32,626 nucleotides of DNA from a virus (Duplodnaviria; Heunggongvirae; Uroviricota; Caudoviricetes). The DNA is taken from IMG/VR virus record IMGVR_UViG_2778261384_000002; one strand, written 5' to 3'. Below, piece by piece: positions 5,162 to 32,626 of this stretch. Below the pieces are notes generated by a model, which made no database searches, had not been told where the DNA came from, and saw only the letters and a list, made by a program, of their open reading frames with translations. Made by a program: the position numbers and the translations under genes. The stretch's first letter is position 1. Every line of letters starts with the position of its first letter.

Positions 5162-7255
5162 TTACCACCAAATTCTGACAAAACCTGGCGAACCATTGCC
5201 GCCATTACTTTTATTCAGCCCACTACAACTACCGCCAGAACCGCCCGCGCCGTATCCTGTCCCGTTACTACAACCTGATGGAATTCCTTTCCCACCAAGC
5301 CCGAATGGGCTATTTTCGCCGTCGCCAGCGGTCCATATTGTTGATTTAAGGCCATTGAATTCAGCCGGATCCCAAACGCCACTGTTCAGTAATCCACTGC
5401 CGCCCGCGGCTGAAACACCTCCGAAACTAGAAGAACCGCCAGCACCACCAACAATCAGCGCCGTGCCTGATGCAGGGATCGCACCAGCACCGCCAGCACC
5501 TACAGCAACAGAAACAGCCGCCCCCGGCGAAACGGCGACTATTGCAATAGCAATTTGAGCGGCGCGCCCTCCTGGTGCTGGCTTGTAGTAATTGGTGGAC
5601 GATGGGGCCGCGCTGCCGCCAGCACCGCCCCCGATCATTTCCACGAAAACTTTCTTTACCCCGGCAGGGACAGTAAATGTCCCGTTTGCAGTAAACAGGG
5701 CAAAATTACCGAAATAGCGCAAATCGGCGTTTGCCGTCGTGATAAAGTCCGGCGCGCCGGTAATATCGGACCAGGAGTGTTTATGGTTGGCAGCGGCTGC
5801 GCTTACGTCGCTGTACGTCAGCGTAATATCCGCTGACAGTGCCTTATTGTTCACCTTGCGCGTTGTTGGCACGGCGTTTACGTCGCTGTACGTCAGCGCA
5901 ATGTCCGCTGACAGCGCCTTATTGTTCACCTTGCGCGTTGTCGGCACGGCGTTTACGTCGCTGTATGTCAGCGTAATATCCGCTGACAGCGCCTTATTGT
6001 TCACCTTGCGCGTTGTCGGCACAGCGTTTACGTCGCTGTACGTCAGCGTGATGTCCGCTGACAGCGCCTTATCGTTCACCTTGCGCGTTGTTGGCACGGC
6101 ATTTACGTCGCTGTACGTCAGCGCAATGTCCGCTGACAGCGCCTTATTGTTCACCTTGCGCGTTGTCGGCACGGCGTTTACGTCGCTGTATGTCAGCGTA
6201 ATATCCGCTGACAGCGCCTTATTATTCACCTTGCGCGTATCCTGCACCGCGTGAACAATGCGTGGATCATCTGCTGCGGCAACCTGCCCCGCCAATTGCC
6301 CTACGTTGCACACCGCTGCGCCACCCAGCCCCAGATTTACGCGCGACTTGCCTTTATCATCCAAATCAGCCAAGTTTTGCGCCCGGCGCAAGTAGCGCTT
6401 ATCCAGATCGTCACTGTTACGCACTGGACGTAAATCAGTGACTGCCCCATCTGCGGCAATTTCAGCAATTTTAAATACATAGTGGGTTTTCCCCGCAGCA
6501 TCCGAATATTCAGCCAGATCGCCCGACGTAATGACGCAGATATCAGTGACCGGCACGCAGGCAGTCATTACAGACCCCTGCCAGACGGTATCCAGCCAGA
6601 CGGCGGCGGGTTTAGTCCCGACCGCGACATCCTGCGCGGCTTCGTTCGCCAATCGCAAACCGGCCACATAACCCAACCCCGGCAGGCAGCTATATTTCAC
6701 CCCGCTACGTTGAACCAGCCACCCATCATCAAAAAACAGCGCACTGCCGTAATGATCGATATTCAGTAAACGCTGATAATCATCAATACCCGTCAGACGG
6801 GCGGTAAAATCGATCTGCCACGTTTCGGCAGGCGTATTAATCCCTGTCTTTTCTGCAGCACCGTTAAATTCAATCAAAAACGAGCGAGTAAACGCGTTTC
6901 CCTGTTCCGTCGCCGTCGTTTTCACCTTTTCCAGCGCCGGGACCGTTGTCACCATCGCTAAAAGGCCCGTTTTTTTGCAAATCAGGCCGATCCAGTTAAA
7001 CGAAAAATCGCCGACGTTTGTTCCCAGGGTAAACGAGTACGCTACCGTGTTTTTGTTAACCACGCCCGCAGCGTTGACGGGTTCGCGGTAAACAATTTGC
7101 GCAGCATCCGGCAGACCGGCGTCACGGTTTATCACCGCACCCGGATCAAGGCCGGGCACATTAGCCAAAACAAATTCATCCAGCGAAATGTCGCCCGGCG
7201 TCAGCAGATCAGCGGCCTGCCACTGCTCAAATGCCGTCGTGATAATTGTTGCCAT
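5162..7255 (-). CDS. Tail fibre protein with tandem fibre repeats and glycine-rich C-terminal domain
   Basis: 697 aa; six tandem 26-aa repeats (TRKVNNKALSADITLTYSDVNAVPT) typical of phage tail-fibre repeat units; Gly-rich C-terminus; follows the gpI-like gene as in P2 (H after I). Confidence 0.8.
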   Translation of the reverse strand: MATIITTAFEQWQAADLLTPGDISLDEFVLANVPGLDPGAVINRDAGLPDAAQIVYREPVNAAGVVNKNTVAYSFTLGTNVGDFSFNWIGLICKKTGLLAMVTTVPALEKVKTTATEQGNAFTRSFLIEFNGAAEKTGINTPAETWQIDFTARLTGIDDYQRLLNIDHYGSALFFDDGWLVQRSGVKYSCLPGLGYVAGLRLANEAAQDVAVGTKPAAVWLDTVWQGSVMTACVPVTDICVITSGDLAEYSDAAGKTHYVFKIAEIAADGAVTDLRPVRNSDDLDKRYLRRAQNLADLDDKGKSRVNLGLGGAAVCNVGQLAGQVAAADDPRIVHAVQDTRKVNNKALSADITLTYSDVNAVPTTRKVNNKALSADIALTYSDVNAVPTTRKVNDKALSADITLTYSDVNAVPTTRKVNNKALSADITLTYSDVNAVPTTRKVNNKALSADIALTYSDVNAVPTTRKVNNKALSADITLTYSDVSAAAANHKHSWSDITGAPDFITTANADLRYFGNFALFTANGTFTVPAGVKKVFVEMIGGGAGGSAAPSSTNYYKPAPGGRAAQIAIAIVAVSPGAAVSVAVGAGGAGAIPASGTALIVGGAGGSSSFGGVSAAGGSGLLNSGVWDPAEFNGLKSTIWTAGDGENSPFGLGGKGIPSGCSNGTGYGAGGSGGSCSGLNKSNGGNGSPGFVRIWW
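5795..6250. repeat. Tandem direct repeat, about 78 bp x 6, in-frame inside the tail fibre gene
   Basis: Unit cgtcgctgtacgtcagcgtaatatccgctgacag...ttgcgcgttgtcggcacggcgtttacgt recurs with 78-bp period and a few point differences. Coordinates approximate. Confidence 0.8.
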
Positions 7256-26006: not shown

Positions 26007-26391
26007 TCATGCGGTAAGCGATCGCGTAAAATACGGGCGAATGAGGGTGCGCGGTAAAAAGCTCTTCAAGAAAGTCAGGGTAAATACTCAGTTTAAGCAG
26101 ATCACCTCTTGTCAGACCCCAATTAATAAGCACATAGCTATACACAAATAACAGATCAAAACTCAGCAAAACATCGCCAGTCCCCGTCTTATAAACATCA
26201 GTAATCACCCCGGCGACACAAGCCCCTGTCGCCGTTGGCGGATTCTTTCCTGTATCGTCAAAAATAAACTCACGGATAAATAAAAAATCTTCTTTTATAT
26301 AATCCCCCTCATTTAACAGCACCGCGCGTCTTTCGCGTTTTAACACTGGCTGAAAATAATCCGGCTGAATCGCTACTATGTGAATTGTCAT
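25987..26391 (-). CDS. Hypothetical protein with DUF3850/ASCH-like N-terminal motif
   Basis: 134 aa; N-terminus HIVAIQPDYFQPVLKRERRAVLLNEGDYIKEDFLFIREF resembles the DUF3850/ASCH pattern; overlaps flanking genes. Confidence 0.35.
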   Translation of the reverse strand: MTIHIVAIQPDYFQPVLKRERRAVLLNEGDYIKEDFLFIREFIFDDTGKNPPTATGACVAGVITDVYKTGTGDVLLSFDLLFVYSYVLINWGLTRGDLLKLSIYPDFLEELFTAHPHSPVFYAIAYRMIEEADL

Positions 26392-26585
26392 TCCGCGCCC
26401 CTCAAATCAATATTGTCACCGGGTAAAACTCTAATTGCCTGATATCGCGTGGAACGCGTGATCTGTTCATTGCGGTAAAACCCGTCAATAAACACTTCGG
26501 CATCAATTAAATACTGCTCATTCTTTTTTATTTCCCATATGTCAAATACACGGGTAATGACGGCGGGTGCACTAGTCCTCGTCAT
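26388..26585 (-). CDS. Small hypothetical protein (about 65 aa)
   Basis: Internal ATG with GGGGAG Shine-Dalgarno; overlaps the Dam gene stop by 14 nt; no motif recognised. Confidence 0.3.
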   Translation of the reverse strand: MTRTSAPAVITRVFDIWEIKKNEQYLIDAEVFIDGFYRNEQITRSTRYQAIRVLPGDNIDLRGAE

Positions 26586-27588
26586 AGAATTCACTCCCCG
26601 CGCTCGCACAAAAATCGACACTGTCACAAGCTCCACAGCCGCCATCCGGGCAACCCCAAACCGCGCGGCGCTGGGTGTCACAACTACACGGACGGCCCGT
26701 AATCAGGCGACCCCCGCAATATTCACAATGTGGGATATATCCGATCACTTCTTTTGCAGGCTCGCGTTTGCTGGTATTGGCACTGACTGACCGCTGAACA
26801 TTAATTTCCTGAAATGTGAACGGTGCGTAGATTTCTCGCGTGGCGGGCGTGTCGCTGTTGGAAATAACAACCTTTGCAGCACCTCGCGCGCTTATTTCTA
26901 ATAATCTCTGAACTAAGCGGCGGTGGTTGTCCTGGCTGAAGGTCTGCCCATAATATGTGGTAAAGTCTGCTGTTTCGCTGGCGGGTAAATATGGCGGATC
27001 GCAGTAAATAACGAGATTAGGCCCGAAGGGCAGCATTGATAATGTGTCATCAAAATTCATATTGATAAACACCGCATTTGTATCATTCGCCTTTTCTGCA
27101 AACTGCCGGATCTCCTGTTCGGGAAAATACGGCGCTGTCTTATGTCGACCAAACGGAACATTGTATTCCAGTTTATTGTTATAGCGACAAACGCCGTTAT
27201 AACCGTGCCGATTCAAATAGAGAAACCGCGCCGACTGCATTAACGACAATCGCTGCGATGGATATCGGCACCAATCTTTGCGGCAACTTGAATTTAATTC
27301 ATTAAATTCTTTGCGAATCTTTAAATAATATTCTTTTGAATTACCTTCTTTGAATAATTCCCGCGCAACGCAAATAAACAGATTAGTACTATGTTTCACA
27401 TGTTCATACGTGTTTATCAGATCTGAATTAATGTCAGCTAAAACATACTTATCATAACTTGTGTTTAAAAATACCGAACCGCCGCCAACAAACGGTTCCA
27501 TCAGACAATAACCCTTCGGCAAGTGCGGCAGCAGCTCAGGCAAAGCGCGAGTTTTTCCACCTGCCCACTTCAAAAACGGTCTGATCAT
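26572..27588 (-). CDS. Dam-family N6-adenine DNA methyltransferase with Cys-rich C-terminal extension
   Basis: 338 aa; motif I EPFVGGGSVFLN and motif IV DPPY; C-terminal about 60 aa carries 10 cysteines (CEYCGG...PCSCD...GCPDGGCGACDSVDFC). Confidence 0.8.
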   Translation of the reverse strand: MIRPFLKWAGGKTRALPELLPHLPKGYCLMEPFVGGGSVFLNTSYDKYVLADINSDLINTYEHVKHSTNLFICVARELFKEGNSKEYYLKIRKEFNELNSSCRKDWCRYPSQRLSLMQSARFLYLNRHGYNGVCRYNNKLEYNVPFGRHKTAPYFPEQEIRQFAEKANDTNAVFINMNFDDTLSMLPFGPNLVIYCDPPYLPASETADFTTYYGQTFSQDNHRRLVQRLLEISARGAAKVVISNSDTPATREIYAPFTFQEINVQRSVSANTSKREPAKEVIGYIPHCEYCGGRLITGRPCSCDTQRRAVWGCPDGGCGACDSVDFCASAGSEFYDED

Positions 27589-27806
27589 TTTTTATATTCC
27601 TTGTTATATCGTTCGTGAGTTAATAAAGTCCATTGCTGGCCGTCGTTTTTACTCAGTAACCGCCAACATCTGCCGATTGCAATTGACAGATAACCAGTCG
27701 CCAGCCGCCGCACTTTATCGCGGCGACCCTGTCGGAATTCACTAATTAAATTGTGTGCCTGATCAACAACGTAGGCGGGGCAATTATCATTTTTCCGGCG
27801 AATCAT
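27585..27806 (-). CDS. Small hypothetical early protein
   Basis: 73 aa, basic; overlaps both neighbours in the early operon; no motif recognised. Confidence 0.3.
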   Translation of the reverse strand: MIRRKNDNCPAYVVDQAHNLISEFRQGRRDKVRRLATGYLSIAIGRCWRLLSKNDGQQWTLLTHERYNKEYKK

Positions 27807-28374
27807 GATTCACCTTCTCCGCGCGAACGGCAGAAATATTTTTGATATCGTCGCTTAATCTGGCAATCTGGTTAATAACGTCATTCATTGCGTGATGCGG
27901 ATGTTCCAGAACCGCGCGCATTGATGAGTGACCGCATATTGTCAGCGCGATTTCTGCAACCGTTCTAACGTCGCGAGCATTCCAGAAATTCCAGGCCGGA
28001 CGAATCCCTGTCAGGCGCATCGAGTGATAAATAACTGGTAAATCAAAATCAGTGCCGCGCGCCCATATTTTTAAATCTTCTGAATCATCACAAAAACAAC
28101 AAAAATCGTTCAACTTATAGAGCGACTCTGATAAAGGCAAACCAGCATCGGATACAAGCTCATCTCTTGCGCATAAATTTTGCTTCATCCACCATTTAAC
28201 AGTATCCGCACCAATTGTCGCCCCTTTGTATTGAGCATCAGCAACATTAACGGGAATATAAATAGACATTCCAATCTCGCCAGTTCGGGGATCGAAAAAT
28301 GCGGCAGCAATAGAAACAATTGAGGCAGTTGGTTTATTATCCAATGTTTCAATGTCAATCATTATATTATTCAT
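27787..28374 (-). CDS. 3'-5' exonuclease, DEDD (DnaQ-like) superfamily
   Basis: 195 aa; N-terminal IDIETLD (Exo I D-x-E) with later FDLPVIYH and HHAMNDV motifs consistent with DEDDh exonucleases. Confidence 0.6.
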   Translation of the reverse strand: MNNIMIDIETLDNKPTASIVSIAAAFFDPRTGEIGMSIYIPVNVADAQYKGATIGADTVKWWMKQNLCARDELVSDAGLPLSESLYKLNDFCCFCDDSEDLKIWARGTDFDLPVIYHSMRLTGIRPAWNFWNARDVRTVAEIALTICGHSSMRAVLEHPHHAMNDVINQIARLSDDIKNISAVRAEKVNHDSPEK

Positions 28375-28669: not shown

Positions 28670-28903
28670 TTAAAAATAGCGTTTAATTAATTTAATCAGT
28701 GCGGCTATTACGCCCCTGTTTATTTTTTGCGTGTACACAAAAGGCTTGTTTCTGCCCTTAATAAACTGAACTCTTGACGGCTCCGGCTTAAAATAACGCC
28801 CGTCCGGTGTTTCAATCCAGCCGCGCGTCGATTTACAATGCGTGACCTGGCAACCGTTGCGTAATAGACTGGCGAATGAAGGAAATTGTTGTTCACTCAT
28901 AAC
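28670..28903 (-). CDS. Small hypothetical early protein
   Basis: Internal start MSEQQF... about 77 aa, overlapping the upstream small membrane ORF by 7 nt; basic C-terminus. Confidence 0.3.
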   Translation of the reverse strand, partial: VMSEQQFPSFASLLRNGCQVTHCKSTRGWIETPDGRYFKPEPSRVQFIKGRNKPFVYTQKINRGVIAALIKLIKRYF

Positions 28904-29118
28904 AGACACTCTAAAAGGGAGGCGACGCCAAATATTAGCAGCCAGCCACAAAATACATCTAAAAATAATGGTGCCGCCGCTTCAATATCCCTGTGTAATG
29001 CGTCAATAAAACGGATTCTGTTGCTACTGTTTTTTAATCTTCCGTAGGACCAAACAACAACGGCCCCCAAAATAAAAACCGCAACATTAAATATCCCCGA
29101 AAAAAAATATTGGCTCAT
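28897..29118 (-). CDS. Small membrane protein (two predicted TM helices)
   Basis: 73 aa with two hydrophobic segments (NVAVFILGAVVVW and FCGWLLIFGVASLL). Confidence 0.35.
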   Translation of the reverse strand: MSQYFFSGIFNVAVFILGAVVVWSYGRLKNSSNRIRFIDALHRDIEAAAPLFLDVFCGWLLIFGVASLLECLL

Positions 29119-29129
29119 TGCGCACCCGT

Positions 29130-29378
29130 TTATCTGCCAGTAATGGCAAGCTTTAGATCAGCGATCAGGCGGTCCAGTTGGTGGCGTCCGTCATCGTTCA
29201 GTGCGTCAATGCCGTAATCAAACGCAGCCAGAATTGCCATTTCCATTTCGCGGGATTCGATCGCGATGGGCAGTCGCTTACCCGGTTGCACATATACCGG
29301 CACGTCGTACCCTTCATAAAACGGATCGACTTCCCGCGCCTTTTCTGTGTTAAGTGGATTAAACATTTTTCCTCTCAA
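29130..29378 (-). CDS. Small hypothetical early protein
   Basis: 82-aa ORF; stop and start overlap the Cox-like gene (coupling); no motif recognised. Confidence 0.3.
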   Translation of the reverse strand: MRGKMFNPLNTEKAREVDPFYEGYDVPVYVQPGKRLPIAIESREMEMAILAAFDYGIDALNDDGRHQLDRLIADLKLAITGR

Positions 29379-29794
29379 TTAAACGCTGTCGTTTTTGTCA
29401 GGCTGGCTTCGGCGGTCATAAAAGCTCTGGCATACCATGCAACCATATTGATTTGTCTTAGTTCTCGACGATTCGGATCGACACGCGGAACTAATGGCAG
29501 ATAGCCGCGCTCCGCATCGCTTTGAACCTTACGCAAAGACTGTCCGAAGAATTCGGAAAATTCCTGCACTGTTAAAACCGGTTTAATGCCACTACTAAGG
29601 ATATGTTTCAGTGCGCGGTCAATTGCCATTAGTTCACGTTCAGAACGACTATCAGGGGCTCGCCAAGCGCGGCGCTGATGATTGCTTTGAGTCTGTTCGG
29701 GTAAAAACGCGCCTTGTGCCAGTTCAACAACCGGGTAGTAACCAGGATCAGTCTCCTGATGTGCGGGTAAAGCTCTGTTTTGCTCTGGTGTCAT
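29375..29794 (-). CDS. Cox/Apl-like HTH excisionase-regulator, first gene of early operon
   Basis: 139 aa; AGGA Shine-Dalgarno before ATG; segment LTVQEFSEFFGQSLRKVQSDAERGYLPLV parallels the P2 Cox HTH as recalled; divergent from the C repressor gene. Confidence 0.45.
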   Translation of the reverse strand: MTPEQNRALPAHQETDPGYYPVVELAQGAFLPEQTQSNHQRRAWRAPDSRSERELMAIDRALKHILSSGIKPVLTVQEFSEFFGQSLRKVQSDAERGYLPLVPRVDPNRRELRQINMVAWYARAFMTAEASLTKTTAFN

Positions 29795-29886
29795 TTGATA
29801 TCCTGTCGGTTTAGATTGGTTTCGTTTGTGCTCAACGGGGTACGTATTTGTACCCTTGGCGTAATATTAAGGGGCAAATTTGTACC
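29795..29886. promoter_or_regulatory. C/cox-type switch region with candidate operator repeats
   Basis: 92-bp gap between divergent Cox-like and C genes; direct repeat ATTTGTACC x2 about 32 bp apart, the second abutting the C start codon; overlapping GGGTAC/GTACCC inverted repeat. Confidence 0.45.
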
Positions 29887-30156
29887 ATGTCAACATTACT
29901 GGGCGAAAAAATTCGACTTATACGGGAAGCGGAAGGCCTCACCCGAGAGGATTTCGAAGCAATGACCGGCATACCTGCCGGAAATACAAAACGTTATGAA
30001 ACTGGTAGAACAAAAAGTATCGGTAGTGACTTTTTAACCAAAATTACTAATCACCCCAGATTCCAGCGGTATACGCTATGGCTGATGTCTGACATCACCG
30101 CACCAGAAGCAGGTCAGATAGCACCAGTTACCAAAGAAGAGAAAAAGACCGGTTAA
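29887..30156 (+). CDS. Immunity repressor, P2 C-type
   Basis: Track ORF begins with TTG at 29848; ATG at 29887 (AAGGGG Shine-Dalgarno) gives 89 aa; motif RFQRYTLWLMSDITAPEAGQIAP matches P2 C as recalled. Confidence 0.7.
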   Translation: MSTLLGEKIRLIREAEGLTREDFEAMTGIPAGNTKRYETGRTKSIGSDFLTKITNHPRFQRYTLWLMSDITAPEAGQIAPVTKEEKKTG

Positions 30157-30198
30157 TCACCGCCCGCACTGCGGGCGAATAATACATAAGGAAAATGT

Positions 30199-30648
30199 AT
30201 GTCAAAAGATAATGATACATTTATACCCCCAATACGCCCACCTCGTAATTCCCGCTATGGAGAACCATCACCAGAACTTATGAAAAGGCTACAACAAGTT
30301 ACCCCTGAATTATTCGCTGAATTTTTGATGTCAAAAAACGCCGCTCAGTTCTGCATATCATGTGGATTCACTAAATTAACAATGTCCGAAAATGGAGTTT
30401 ATAGTGGCGCGAAGATTCCCGAGAACTATGATTCTTTATCGCAAATCGATCAGGAAAAATTCGTAGGTGATAATACTCTCTGGTATGTAACGCCCGTGTT
30501 TGTGAATACTCATACAAAAATAAGATTAGCCGATGTCGAATATAAAATTAATTGCCCAAACTGCGGGCATATCAGCATTTATCGCGCCCGCCCGGTCGTC
30601 GCATGGATAGAAGAGAATCGCAAGGAATGCAAAAATGAGTCAGACTAA
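30199..30648 (+). CDS. Hypothetical zinc-ribbon protein (accessory cassette gene 1)
   Basis: 149 aa; AGGA Shine-Dalgarno; two CxxC pairs (CISCG and CPNCG) about 68 residues apart; AT-rich codon usage unlike the phage core. Confidence 0.5.
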   Translation: MSKDNDTFIPPIRPPRNSRYGEPSPELMKRLQQVTPELFAEFLMSKNAAQFCISCGFTKLTMSENGVYSGAKIPENYDSLSQIDQEKFVGDNTLWYVTPVFVNTHTKIRLADVEYKINCPNCGHISIYRARPVVAWIEENRKECKNESD

Positions 30649-31069
30649 GGATAATGTTCATCATATAAGAGAACGTCAGGTACCCATAAATAATGAGTCC
30701 ACAAACAGTAGTGACGACGGAGGCAACGGCATGAACAGCCTAATAAAACGCGTTGAAAAACTTGAAGACAATACCGGTGTAATTGTTAAAGAACTTACCC
30801 ATCTCAATGCGCGCGCTGATGACTTCGCCTCAAAGGGAGATCTGCGTGAACTCAAGGCGCAGATAACTGGGGATATGAAAGAACTCCGTGCGCAGATGAC
30901 CGGAGATATGCGCGAGCTTAAGGCACAGATTAGCGGCGAACTCAAAGAGTCCAGGTCAGCAGCCAGGGAAGATCTTGCAAAGGGATTACATAAGCAAATG
31001 ATATGGCTATGCTCTGCCCTTTTCGCTACAGCAGGAGTCATAATCGCTTTGGCAAAAGGTCTGCTCTAA
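30635..31069 (+). CDS. Coiled-coil protein with C-terminal transmembrane anchor (accessory cassette gene 2)
   Basis: 144 aa; start overlaps gene 1 by 14 nt with AAGGAA Shine-Dalgarno; three and a half 11-residue repeats (GDLRELKAQIT / GDMKELRAQMT / GDMRELKAQIS); hydrophobic C-terminus MIWLCSALFATAGVIIALA. Confidence 0.5.
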   Translation: MSQTKDNVHHIRERQVPINNESTNSSDDGGNGMNSLIKRVEKLEDNTGVIVKELTHLNARADDFASKGDLRELKAQITGDMKELRAQMTGDMRELKAQISGELKESRSAAREDLAKGLHKQMIWLCSALFATAGVIIALAKGLL

Positions 31070-31250
31070 TTGTGCGATATATTACTTTTTAATAAATTAT
31101 ACAAAAAATATACAACATATATTTTATATTGATTGATAATTACCATTTATTACATACATGAATTACTGATAAGCAGTTTTGGTTAAAATCTGTTCGTGTG
31201 CGAACAATACATTTGCGCCCTGAATGCCAATAATAGCAATCGAGGTGTAT

Positions 31251-31529
31251 ATGTCCTTGCGTAACCGCTTATTCTTGATAATTAATGCTGAAAATCTCAC
31301 TATCTGCAAATTCGCGATGTTTTGTGATATTTCGAAGAAGACACTGTATCAATTCAGGCAGCAAATAATAATGACGCTGCCTGATATTGATTTATTAAAG
31401 ATAGCCCGAAACCCCAGATTCAATAAATACACGTTATGGATGATGACAAATAAGACCGCAGCATCATCCGGGCAAATCGACCCGGCGCTTTTCCCTCTTC
31501 GCTCGCCAAAACAATCTATTAACCAATAA
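31251..31529 (+). CDS. Second P2 C-type repressor paralog
   Basis: About 92 aa from ATG at 31251 (GAGGT Shine-Dalgarno); motif RFNKYTLWMMTNKTAASSGQIDPALFP matches the C-repressor signature; lies immediately upstream of int. Confidence 0.6.
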   Translation: MSLRNRLFLIINAENLTICKFAMFCDISKKTLYQFRQQIIMTLPDIDLLKIARNPRFNKYTLWMMTNKTAASSGQIDPALFPLRSPKQSINQ

Positions 31530-31633
31530 CCCGAACTGGCAACAAATTGAACAGTTATATATTGCTGCGCGTGTTACCCAGTTCAGTTCGTCAGCAAATG
31601 ACGACCAGCATTCACAGCCGGAGAAAATGACAA

Positions 31634-32626
31634 ATGACCATTACTAAAAAGGACAACGGAAAATACATGGTTGATGTTCGGCCTGCGGGGCGTTCCGGGA
31701 AGCGCGTCAGGCGTTCATTCTCCACTAAATCAGAGGCTGTCACCTTTGAACGCTGGATAATAGCCAGTGCTAATAATAAAGAATGGCTGGAAAAACCAGC
31801 TGATCGGCGTCGGTTATCTGAACTGATCGAATTGTGGTGGAAGAACCACGGGCAAACGCTCACCGACTGCAAAAACCGGTTATGGATTTTGAATGCGTCA
31901 TGCGCGCGCTTAAATAATCCACGTATAACCCAACTCACCGCCCAGCTTTTTGCAGAGTACCGAACAAAACGGCGGGCAGAAGGGATCGCGCCAAAAACGT
32001 TAAATAATGAACAACGTTACCTGAAGTCAGTGTTCAGTAAATTGAAAGAACTGGATCTCTTCTGGGATAACAACCCAATGACTGGACTCGCAGAACTGAA
32101 ACTGGCCGAATCAGAACAGGGATATTTTACTGACGAACAGATTAGAACGGTTCTGACAGAGTTAACAGGCGACAACAAGCTGATAGCCAAACTTTGTCTG
32201 TCCACCGGTGCACGATGGAGTGAAGGTGCAAAATTAACCAGGCAGAGACTGGTTAACGGCATGGTGACATTTACAAAAACTAAAAATGGCAAATCACGTT
32301 CAGTTCCTATCGGTAAGGAACTGGAAATGGAGTTAATGCAGAGGATTGAAGCACACGATAAACAACTGATTTTCCCGGATGCGAGCTATCAGACTGCACG
32401 AAAAGTTATTAAAGGCGCTGTTCCTGATCTACCTGACGGACAGGCAACCCACGCTTTCAGGCACACTTTCGCCTCTCATTTCATGGCAAACGGAGGAAAC
32501 ATATTGGTACTTCAACGAGTCCTGGGCCATCACAAAATCCAACAAACGATGACTTATGCTCACTTTGCCCCTGATCATTTGTTTGATGCGGTGACATTAA
32601 ACCCATTAGCTACGATGAAAATATAA
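31634..32626 (+). CDS. int: Tyrosine integrase, P2 Int family
   Basis: 330 aa; N-terminus ...DVRPAGRSGKRVRRSF.TKSEA..FE and C-terminal GQATHAFRHTFASHFMANGGNILVLQRVLGHHKIQQTMTYAHFAP (R...HxxR...Y catalytic motifs) match P2 Int as recalled; stop codon is the last base of the window. Confidence 0.9.
   Translation: MTITKKDNGKYMVDVRPAGRSGKRVRRSFSTKSEAVTFERWIIASANNKEWLEKPADRRRLSELIELWWKNHGQTLTDCKNRLWILNASCARLNNPRITQLTAQLFAEYRTKRRAEGIAPKTLNNEQRYLKSVFSKLKELDLFWDNNPMTGLAELKLAESEQGYFTDEQIRTVLTELTGDNKLIAKLCLSTGARWSEGAKLTRQRLVNGMVTFTKTKNGKSRSVPIGKELEMELMQRIEAHDKQLIFPDASYQTARKVIKGAVPDLPDGQATHAFRHTFASHFMANGGNILVLQRVLGHHKIQQTMTYAHFAPDHLFDAVTLNPLATMKI

Follow-up and report, generated by a model that had tools for sequence, protein, structure and literature searches.

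A diverged second C-family gene beside the integrase gene of an Escherichia coli P2-like prophage

The right end of a 32,626-nucleotide viral DNA (IMG/VR record IMGVR_UViG_2778261384_000002, Caudoviricetes; the whole analyzed stretch is called the window below) is the regulatory region of a P2-like prophage of Escherichia coli, and it encodes two members of the P2 C repressor family, designated C1 and C2 (Table 1). The P2 switch is the textbook case of control by one small repressor that acts at direct repeats and is co-transcribed with the integrase gene (int); the promoter Pc serves both C and int. In P2, int comes straight after a single C gene on the Pc transcript; the present locus has a terminator, a second C paralog and, in the window, cargo genes between C1 and int. 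The second paralog is conserved in at least six lineages from three genera, lies between the terminator and int, and lacks the residues with which proteins of this family usually hold DNA. In the explanation that is favored here, and that is held only tentatively as a whole, C1 and C2 would be old paralogs within the P2 C family, each with its own task, C2 being an int-linked DNA-binding regulator of the int unit and not an immunity determinant. No account of duplicated C genes in P2-like phages turned up in literature searches.

The original prediction had identified two open reading frames (ORFs) with the P2 C signature, one divergent from the Cox-like gene and the other immediately upstream of int. 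Both are real, full-length C-family paralogs in that arrangement: C1 diverges from the Cox-like gene, and C2 lies 105 nt upstream of int and 1.4 kb from cox. Alignment of the two proteins with each other is gapless over 76 residues (34% identity, E = 2e-14), both were aligned with P2 C (Table 1), and the PHROG 147 profile covers the full length of each. C2 also matches the solved P2 C structure by sequence (PDB 2l49/2xcj, E = 1.9e-8). An AlphaFold2 model of C2, built on an alignment composed mostly of canonical C proteins, has a mean pLDDT of 86.8 and five helices, and its top structural match is P2 C (2xcj_A; TM-score 0.79/0.86, rmsd 1.4 Å). Both proteins resemble P2 C (PDB 2xcj/2l49), W-phi C, and P2 Hy dis C in being about 90 amino acids long, with five helices and the C-terminal motif PRFxKYTLWxM...GQIxP. 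The AT-rich codon usage that had also been ascribed to the second ORF was not borne out; the GC content of C2 is 39%, compared with 44% for C1, yet its third-position GC is 48%.

The comparative data indicate that C2 is a real gene and not a remnant. Its reading frame is intact in six lineages belonging to three genera, with 36 of its 92 positions invariant within the subfamily, and its start at position 31251 is conserved in relatives together with a strong upstream ribosome-binding site (RBS), GAGGTG. Among five lineages, between which synonymous divergence is approximately 1 per site and near saturation, dN/dS ranges from 0.13 to 0.5; it stays below 1 for each half of the protein, with the fastest evolution in the helix-turn-helix (HTH) region. 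An ORF without HTH and dimerisation regions, or an untranslated relic, had been considered beforehand, and neither description fits a protein that keeps the HTH fold and the C-terminal half under purifying selection. In a phylogenetic tree the C2-type proteins are monophyletic on a long stem. They are also scarce, with five clusters in 5.8 billion proteins and one or two representatives in 1.84 billion, and C2 is by these measures a rare, distinct subfamily of the P2 C family. In its E. coli carriers, standard annotation overlooks the gene: C2 is missing from the PGAP feature table of the one genome inspected, and feature summaries of the other six genomes with the region list an identical feature set.

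C2 has lost N-terminal residues that are near-invariant in the family (R13, G17, Y37, E38, and G40), as revealed by comparing the C2-type sequences with 112 canonical family members (P2 numbering throughout). Structural work on P2 C assigned DNA-backbone contacts to R13 and R20, with E38 holding both in position, and identified helix 3 (residues 31 to 39) as the recognition helix (PMC2995052). The canonical proteins conserve R13 (111/112), E38 (110/112), and G40 (107/112), and the R20 position is occupied by R or Q. In C2-type proteins, R13 is replaced by I or M, R20 by I or G, E38 by R, M, K, or Y, and G40 by Q or R; G17 becomes N or K and Y37 becomes F or L. C1 and all C2-type sequences retain the C-terminal residues L49, K51, P56, F58, K60, Y61, L63, W64, M66, G75, Q76, and P79, apart from a V in place of L49 in one C2-type sequence. 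The T67 position varies within the C2 type (T, L, or I). In P2 C, the C-terminal surface and T67 have been implicated in protein contacts and in sensitivity to epsilon, and the strictly conserved surface formed by G75 to H83 has an unknown partner (PMC2995052). The net charge of C2-type proteins ranges from +2 to +8, against a canonical mean of +1.5, and this strong basicity fits nucleic-acid binding. C2 belongs to the family by its sequence and predicted fold but departs from a canonical immunity repressor in key residues and position and apparently in its operator: unlike P2 C and its heteroimmune relatives, it is encoded away from cox and the early promoter Pe, has no recognizable direct-repeat operator, lacks R13, R20, E38, and G40, is much more basic, and falls in a separate long-branch clade.

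C2 is linked to int and not to the cargo. Immediately before int, a C2-type gene occurs in the window, in Enterobacter sp. MF024 (L002), in Pantoea allii (L038), and in L030, L031, and L032, with sequence from SRR32519369, SRR19200056, and SRR25820363, respectively, and a canonical C gene precedes it in all six lineages wherever upstream DNA is available. The DNA between them varies. The order in L002 is cox, C1, an unrelated 293-amino acid gene, C2, and int; L030 has cox, C1, a terminator, C2, and int without cargo; L031, also cargo-free, shows the end of a canonical C gene, 200 bp, C2, and int; and L032 has three canonical C genes in tandem and then C2. L038 again has no cargo, with cox, C1, a strong terminator, a C2-like protein, and int; this protein, which shares 38% identity with C2, is likewise without R13 and the YExG motif. 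The reverse combination is seen in L033, where two canonical C genes are followed by homologs of cargo genes 1 and 2 (39% and 29% identical, respectively) and int, without C2, and the Klebsiella P2-like element CP052639 carries a gene 1 homolog (36.6% identity) after int. Because C2 occurs without cargo or with other cargo, and cargo occurs without C2, the two are independent and C2 is inherited with int; the leader of C2, C2 itself, a small ORF, and int form one block that is common to all five close lineages. This pattern speaks against the earlier proposal that the cassette had brought its own repressor, which C2 without cargo (L030, L031, L038), C2 with unrelated cargo (L002), and related cargo without C2 (L033) all contradict. 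The arrangement indicates instead that the cargo is inserted between two pre-existing paralogs, immediately behind the C1 hairpin. The 181-bp gap between cargo gene 2 and C2 (31070-31250; 27% GC) consists of an AT-rich spacer, which is probably the right edge of the cargo insertion, and the conserved C2 leader.

C1 is, from its sequence, an ordinary immunity repressor of a standard P2-type switch, with what appears to be a new immunity type of the P2 C family. Read against family conservation, it retains K8, R13, E16, G17, R20, Y37, E38, and G40, and all near-invariant family residues are present. The predicted Pe lies over the C1 start, an arrangement also seen in L002 and L030, and its -10 hexamer is flanked by the two half-sites of a putative operator. 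P2-type operators at Pe are direct repeats spaced by 22 bp (P2), 26 bp (P2 Hy dis), or 34 bp (W-phi), and the W-phi operator has 10-bp half-sites that flank the -10 (PMC1904268). The putative C1 operator has a geometry similar to that of W-phi, with 32 bp between its half-sites. A sister prophage (L005, L006, L025) provides a natural exchange at this position: the operator region and the first ~63 codons of C1 are replaced, with new half-sites GTCTAATT(A/G)GACT present twice, and the sister prophage otherwise nearly matches the window in cox, cargo, C2, and int (C2 is 97-98% identical in L005). The exchanged block spans ~240 bp (window 29840-30080 versus L005:5590-5830), and its right junction falls inside the conserved C-terminal coding part of C1. 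Because the exchange replaces the operators together with the N-terminal half of C1 and leaves C2 unaffected, and because C1 keeps the near-invariant residues, specificity is placed in C1 and its operators, and C2 is independent of the C1 type.

A terminator separates the two paralogs. In the cargo-less L030, a hairpin homologous to the one just past the C1 stop codon in the window precedes CTTTGTTTT and is predicted to be a terminator, and a strong terminator occupies the same place behind C1 in Pantoea L038. The window hairpin is the terminator stem without the T-tract, and the cargo starts right behind it. The predicted intrinsic terminators after C1 in L030 and L038, the two cargo-less lineages that are clearest in this respect, together with the stem kept in the window, show the C1 transcript to be insulated from C2.

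Downstream of C2, a conserved coding-like stretch in the +1 frame relative to C2 connects it to int. In all five close lineages this ORF begins inside the 3' end of C2 and stops between -1 and +15 nt from the int ATG. Its signature (..DWQQI(D/E)QL...SANDD..) is shared, variation falls mostly at third codon positions, and further copies lie at L030:1052-1213, L032:1337-1486, and L002 about 6212-6377. Four lineages have a TTG start codon, at a position where the E. coli lineage has TCG. The overlaps suggest that translation is coupled stepwise, from C2 to the small ORF and on to int. Programmed frameshifting from C2 into the +1 frame was considered as a route and rejected, the only slippery-looking heptamer (T_TTC_CCT) shifting into the closed -1 frame and no conserved shift site being present at the C2 stops; an independent or coupled start appears more likely for this ORF than frameshifting. 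The direct repeats (A/G)CAAATGAC that end over the int start codon also occur in L030 and L031, at spacings of 34 and 33 bp, respectively. Their spacing resembles that of C-type operators, and they show no co-variation with helix 3 of C2.

From these features a working model can be drawn, in which the basic layout would be cox, C1, terminator, C2, small ORF, and int. C1, divergent from cox, would bind the two ATTTGTACC direct repeats that flank the -10 of Pe. Expression of int would be uncoupled from the Pc transcript; C2 would be made from the int transcript, chained to int through the overlapping reading frames, and would regulate the int unit, likely by autorepression. A cell without C2 would experience a pulse of integrase on entry of the phage, and int expression would be low in the lysogen. 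The model implies that C2 has a promoter of its own, that it binds DNA at some target, and that this binding affects int.

Several observations weigh against this model. Canonical DNA binding by C2 may be lost or changed, because the DNA-contact residues R13, R20, E38, and G40 are gone. Integrase function does not require C2, since L033 has the same integration site and a related integrase and lacks C2. A plus-strand sigma-70-like promoter was not predicted in the conserved C2 leader of any lineage, in a scan that also missed Pc upstream of C1, and a search for a direct-repeat operator upstream of C2 found none. Furthermore, the C2 leader is conserved among lineages with differing C2 recognition helices, unlike a co-evolving pair of operator and repressor, and the mostly canonical make-up of the alignment behind the C2 structure model must be counted here as well.

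Two other features of the leader were examined. The palindrome TGTTCGTGTGCGAACA, which the original prediction offered as a possible binding site for the second paralog, lies at 31191-31206, one base from the position then given (31192-31207), and has 6-bp arms of which only GTTC-N6-GAAC is kept, in three of five lineages. Three inverted repeats were seen in the gap against an expectation of 1.1 ± 1.4, and 14.5% of shuffled sequences reach three. Characterized C proteins bind direct repeats rather than palindromes (PMC1904268, PMC2995052). The palindrome was rejected as an operator on these three counts: it does not rise above chance, it is only partly conserved, and the family binds direct repeats. 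The leader also contains a leftward promoter-like site that mirrors the relationship of Pe to C1. A homologous site in L002 and L032 (ATGACA-16-TATATT) has 10 of 12 consensus matches, and sigma-70-like sites at or over the C2 start are found in four lineages (the window, L002:5980-6007, L032:1090-1117, and L038:5958-5985), facing C1 or the cargo with no gene downstream. This site may be left over from an old switch or may give rise to antisense RNA.

The same evidence bears on other roles for C2. It could be a second immunity repressor, active in the lysogen and shutting the Pe of another immunity class, as the suggestion of dual or heteroimmune repressors in the original prediction would have it. 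C2 is full length, basic, and modeled with the family fold, and its HTH is the part that varies most between lineages on a conserved scaffold, as it is in immunity repressors (PMC2995052). Stacking of canonical C genes also exists, L032 having four C genes in tandem and L033 two, and the secondary copies in these arrays resemble cox-adjacent copies of other prophages. The C2 type itself, however, lacks R13, E38, and G40, and a cox-adjacent C2-type repressor was found neither in 50,697 phage records nor among the 5.8 billion proteins or 1.84 billion representatives. It is always beside int, behind the terminator or cargo, whereas the extra canonical copies sit directly behind C1. The dual-repressor interpretation is weakened by these data and is considered unlikely. 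Still less probable is a C2 that acts on proteins, as a C look-alike that soaks up antirepressors such as epsilon of satellite P4 or forms mixed dimers with an incoming repressor. Such a function would account for the loss of R13, R20, E38, and G40 alongside retention of the C-terminal invariants K60, Y61, W64, M66, G75, Q76, and P79, and the retained surface and the T67 position are the parts of P2 C tied to protein contacts and epsilon sensitivity (PMC2995052). T67 is not conserved in the C2 type, however, the N-terminal half is still under purifying selection, the higher basicity relative to canonical C would be needless in a decoy, and mixing of C2 with C1 would poison the prophage's own repressor.

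Two further explanations fare worse. A functionless leftover, decaying after an old recombination between heteroimmune phages, would be consistent with the omission of C2 from PGAP annotation in E. coli genomes, with the absent DNA-contact residues, and with a leader that keeps a Pe-like leftward promoter but has no gene for it to drive. An intact frame in six lineages and three genera, dN/dS of 0.13 to 0.5 at near-saturated synonymous divergence, a conserved RBS, and invariance of 36 of 92 positions make it highly improbable. Import of the accessory cassette from another P2-like phage together with C2 as its own repressor has in its favor the location of C2 directly behind the cargo, its lower GC content than C1, and the 27% GC spacer between C2 and the cargo; given the separate distributions of C2 (without cargo in L030, L031, and L038; with unrelated cargo in L002) and of the cargo (without C2 in L033 and CP052639), and the single block of leader, C2, small ORF, and int in all five close lineages, it is scarcely credible.

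Regulation of the int unit by C2, the reading favored here, would amount to a new form of control in P2-like phages, with integration and excision separate from immunity. A broader and doubtful extension of it would make C2 an as yet undescribed, neofunctionalised branch of C repressors in Enterobacterales P2-like prophages that has given up its DNA-contact residues and is hard-wired to int, controlling integration and excision apart from immunity, with the C-int interval serving as an accretion zone that stacks paralogs (up to four in tandem, or fused pairs) and cargo to give multi-immunity. If such an int-control branch exists, the coupling of int to Pc, which is thought to make P2 non-inducible, would be removed. 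If C2 is instead an extra immunity factor or a decoy, it would represent a new prophage-encoded protection against related phages or satellites.

Multiple C-family domains between cox and int, on the lysogenic strand, are not confined to loci with C2. The L032 sequence (L032:1-1489, a Logan contig from SRR25820363) has canonical C genes at 13-306, 343-603, and 647-910, with differing recognition helices, and the C2-type gene at 1114-1395. All four are on one strand, with gaps of 37-44 bp and similar RBS motifs (TTTAGGGAT..), on a short contig that may be an assembly artefact; the array looks like stacked immunity repressors. Tandem C genes of 93 and 98 amino acids, 30 bp apart, occur at L033:5001-7644 (also L034 and L035) at the same mipA-side site. 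Sixteen contigs were read for the first repressor, and the tandem region of L033 was not found in complete E. coli genomes. Fused proteins of 163-195 amino acids with two C-family domains per chain were also identified (P0006-P0009, L036:5001-5519; P0122, P0123, and P0172), and at L036, the one such locus inspected, which belongs to a phage that encodes a Toprim primase, the fused gene is directly upstream of int. A covalent C dimer would suit the binding of non-identical direct repeats. These tandem and fused canonical proteins differ from C2 in keeping the canonical HTH residues and in lying 30-45 bp behind the first C gene or being fused; C2 is a separate subfamily with its own leader, beside int. 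In Pantoea, L038:5139-7341 is a prophage remnant of cox, C1, C2-like gene, and int alone, between a cation-efflux gene and cpxP/cpxRA, with both paralogs intact.

This 3.3-kb regulatory region recurs in 7 of 5,426 complete E. coli genomes, with 99.3-100% identity. The int stop codon is the end of the window, and mipA is the next gene in the inspected E. coli genome (L001) and in L003, an assembled contig with a 99% identical C2. The integrase is at most 48% identical to any integrase of the phage collection. A nucleotide search with 29300-32626 returned no match among 50,697 phage records, none of which has two C-like places. A scan of one genome per species yielded no C2-type locus and just an ordinary C, in Erwinia, and viral and metagenome scans returned, beyond near-identical copies of the element, just ordinary single-C phages. 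No RNA family was found with Rfam in the window at the gathering threshold, nor in 29700-31700 at E ≤ 1.

Table 1. Features of the regulatory region at the right end of the window
Feature	Position	Strand	Evidence and remarks
Cox-like gene, first of early operon	29375-29794	-	PHROG 575 "Cox-like excisionase and repressor" 7.5e-9; weak Pfam Phage_Cox match
Putative C1 operator, two ATTTGTACC half-sites (9-bp direct repeats)	29846-29854 and 29878-29886	.	32 bp apart, either side of Pe -10
Predicted early promoter Pe, TTGACA-18-TAATAT	29864-29893	-	10/12 consensus matches; -35 hexamer overlaps C1 start codon
C1, canonical P2-type immunity repressor, 89 aa	29887-30156	+	PHROG 147 3e-27; Pfam HTH_31; 52% identity to P2 C
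GC-rich hairpin CGCCCGC-ACT-GCGGGCG	30161-30177	+	just past C1 stop; -16.4 kcal/mol, z -2.8
Cargo gene 1, 149 aa, CxxC...CxxC zinc-ribbon-like	30199-30648	+	PHROG 4293 7.8e-20 (unknown function); weak zinc-ribbon Pfam matches
Cargo gene 2, 144 aa, coiled coil, hydrophobic C-terminal segment	30635-31069	+	overlaps gene 1 by 14 nt
Very AT-rich spacer	31070-31169	.	not conserved in other lineages
Conserved C2 leader, ~80 bp	31170-31250	+	alignment; common to L002, L030, L032, partly L031; holds GAGGTG and palindrome
Leftward promoter-like site AGGACA-16-TATTAT, TG before -10	31230-31257	-	consensus match only; -35 hexamer overlaps C2 start, mirrors Pe/C1
C2, diverged C-family paralog, 92 aa	31251-31529	+	PHROG 147 1e-15; 37.5% identity to P2 C
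Conserved coding-like stretch (..NWQQIEQL..SANDD..), +1 frame relative to C2	31530-31647	+	ends 14 nt inside int; no PHROG match
Direct repeats (A/G)CAAATGAC	31593-31638	+	29-36 bp apart; last copy covers int ATG
Tyrosine integrase (int), 330 aa	31634-32626	+	Pfam Int_N and Phage_integrase

The old and tin/fun(Z) loci are insertion hotspots of P2-like prophages for accessory genes (morons and defence genes). The interval between C1 and C2 resembles them in offering a fixed place with differing accessory genes in each relative, apparently read from a lysogenic promoter. Accessory genes have come to occupy the stretch from the C1 terminator to the leader of C2; in the window they encode a zinc-ribbon protein and a coiled-coil membrane protein. 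To our knowledge, this interval between the C1 terminator and C2-int is not among the described P2-like hotspots, and it could be used for finding new accessory or defence genes. With PADLOC, neither cargo gene of the window had a credible defence-system match. Homologs of gene 1 alone are also present in several larger Salmonella and Klebsiella phage genomes. The 293-amino acid Enterobacter cargo protein (L002:4845-5726) matches PHROG 3989 (5e-97), with a weak match to PDC-S48, a candidate defence protein (4e-8), and a weak match to BRCT-like parts of NAD-dependent ligases. Elsewhere in the window, the early region at 26388-28374 (names from L001) contains a ParE-family toxin-like gene overlapping a DNA adenine methylase and a 3'-5' exonuclease (Rv2179c-like), and a Fil-family filamentation protein is encoded at 28670-28951.

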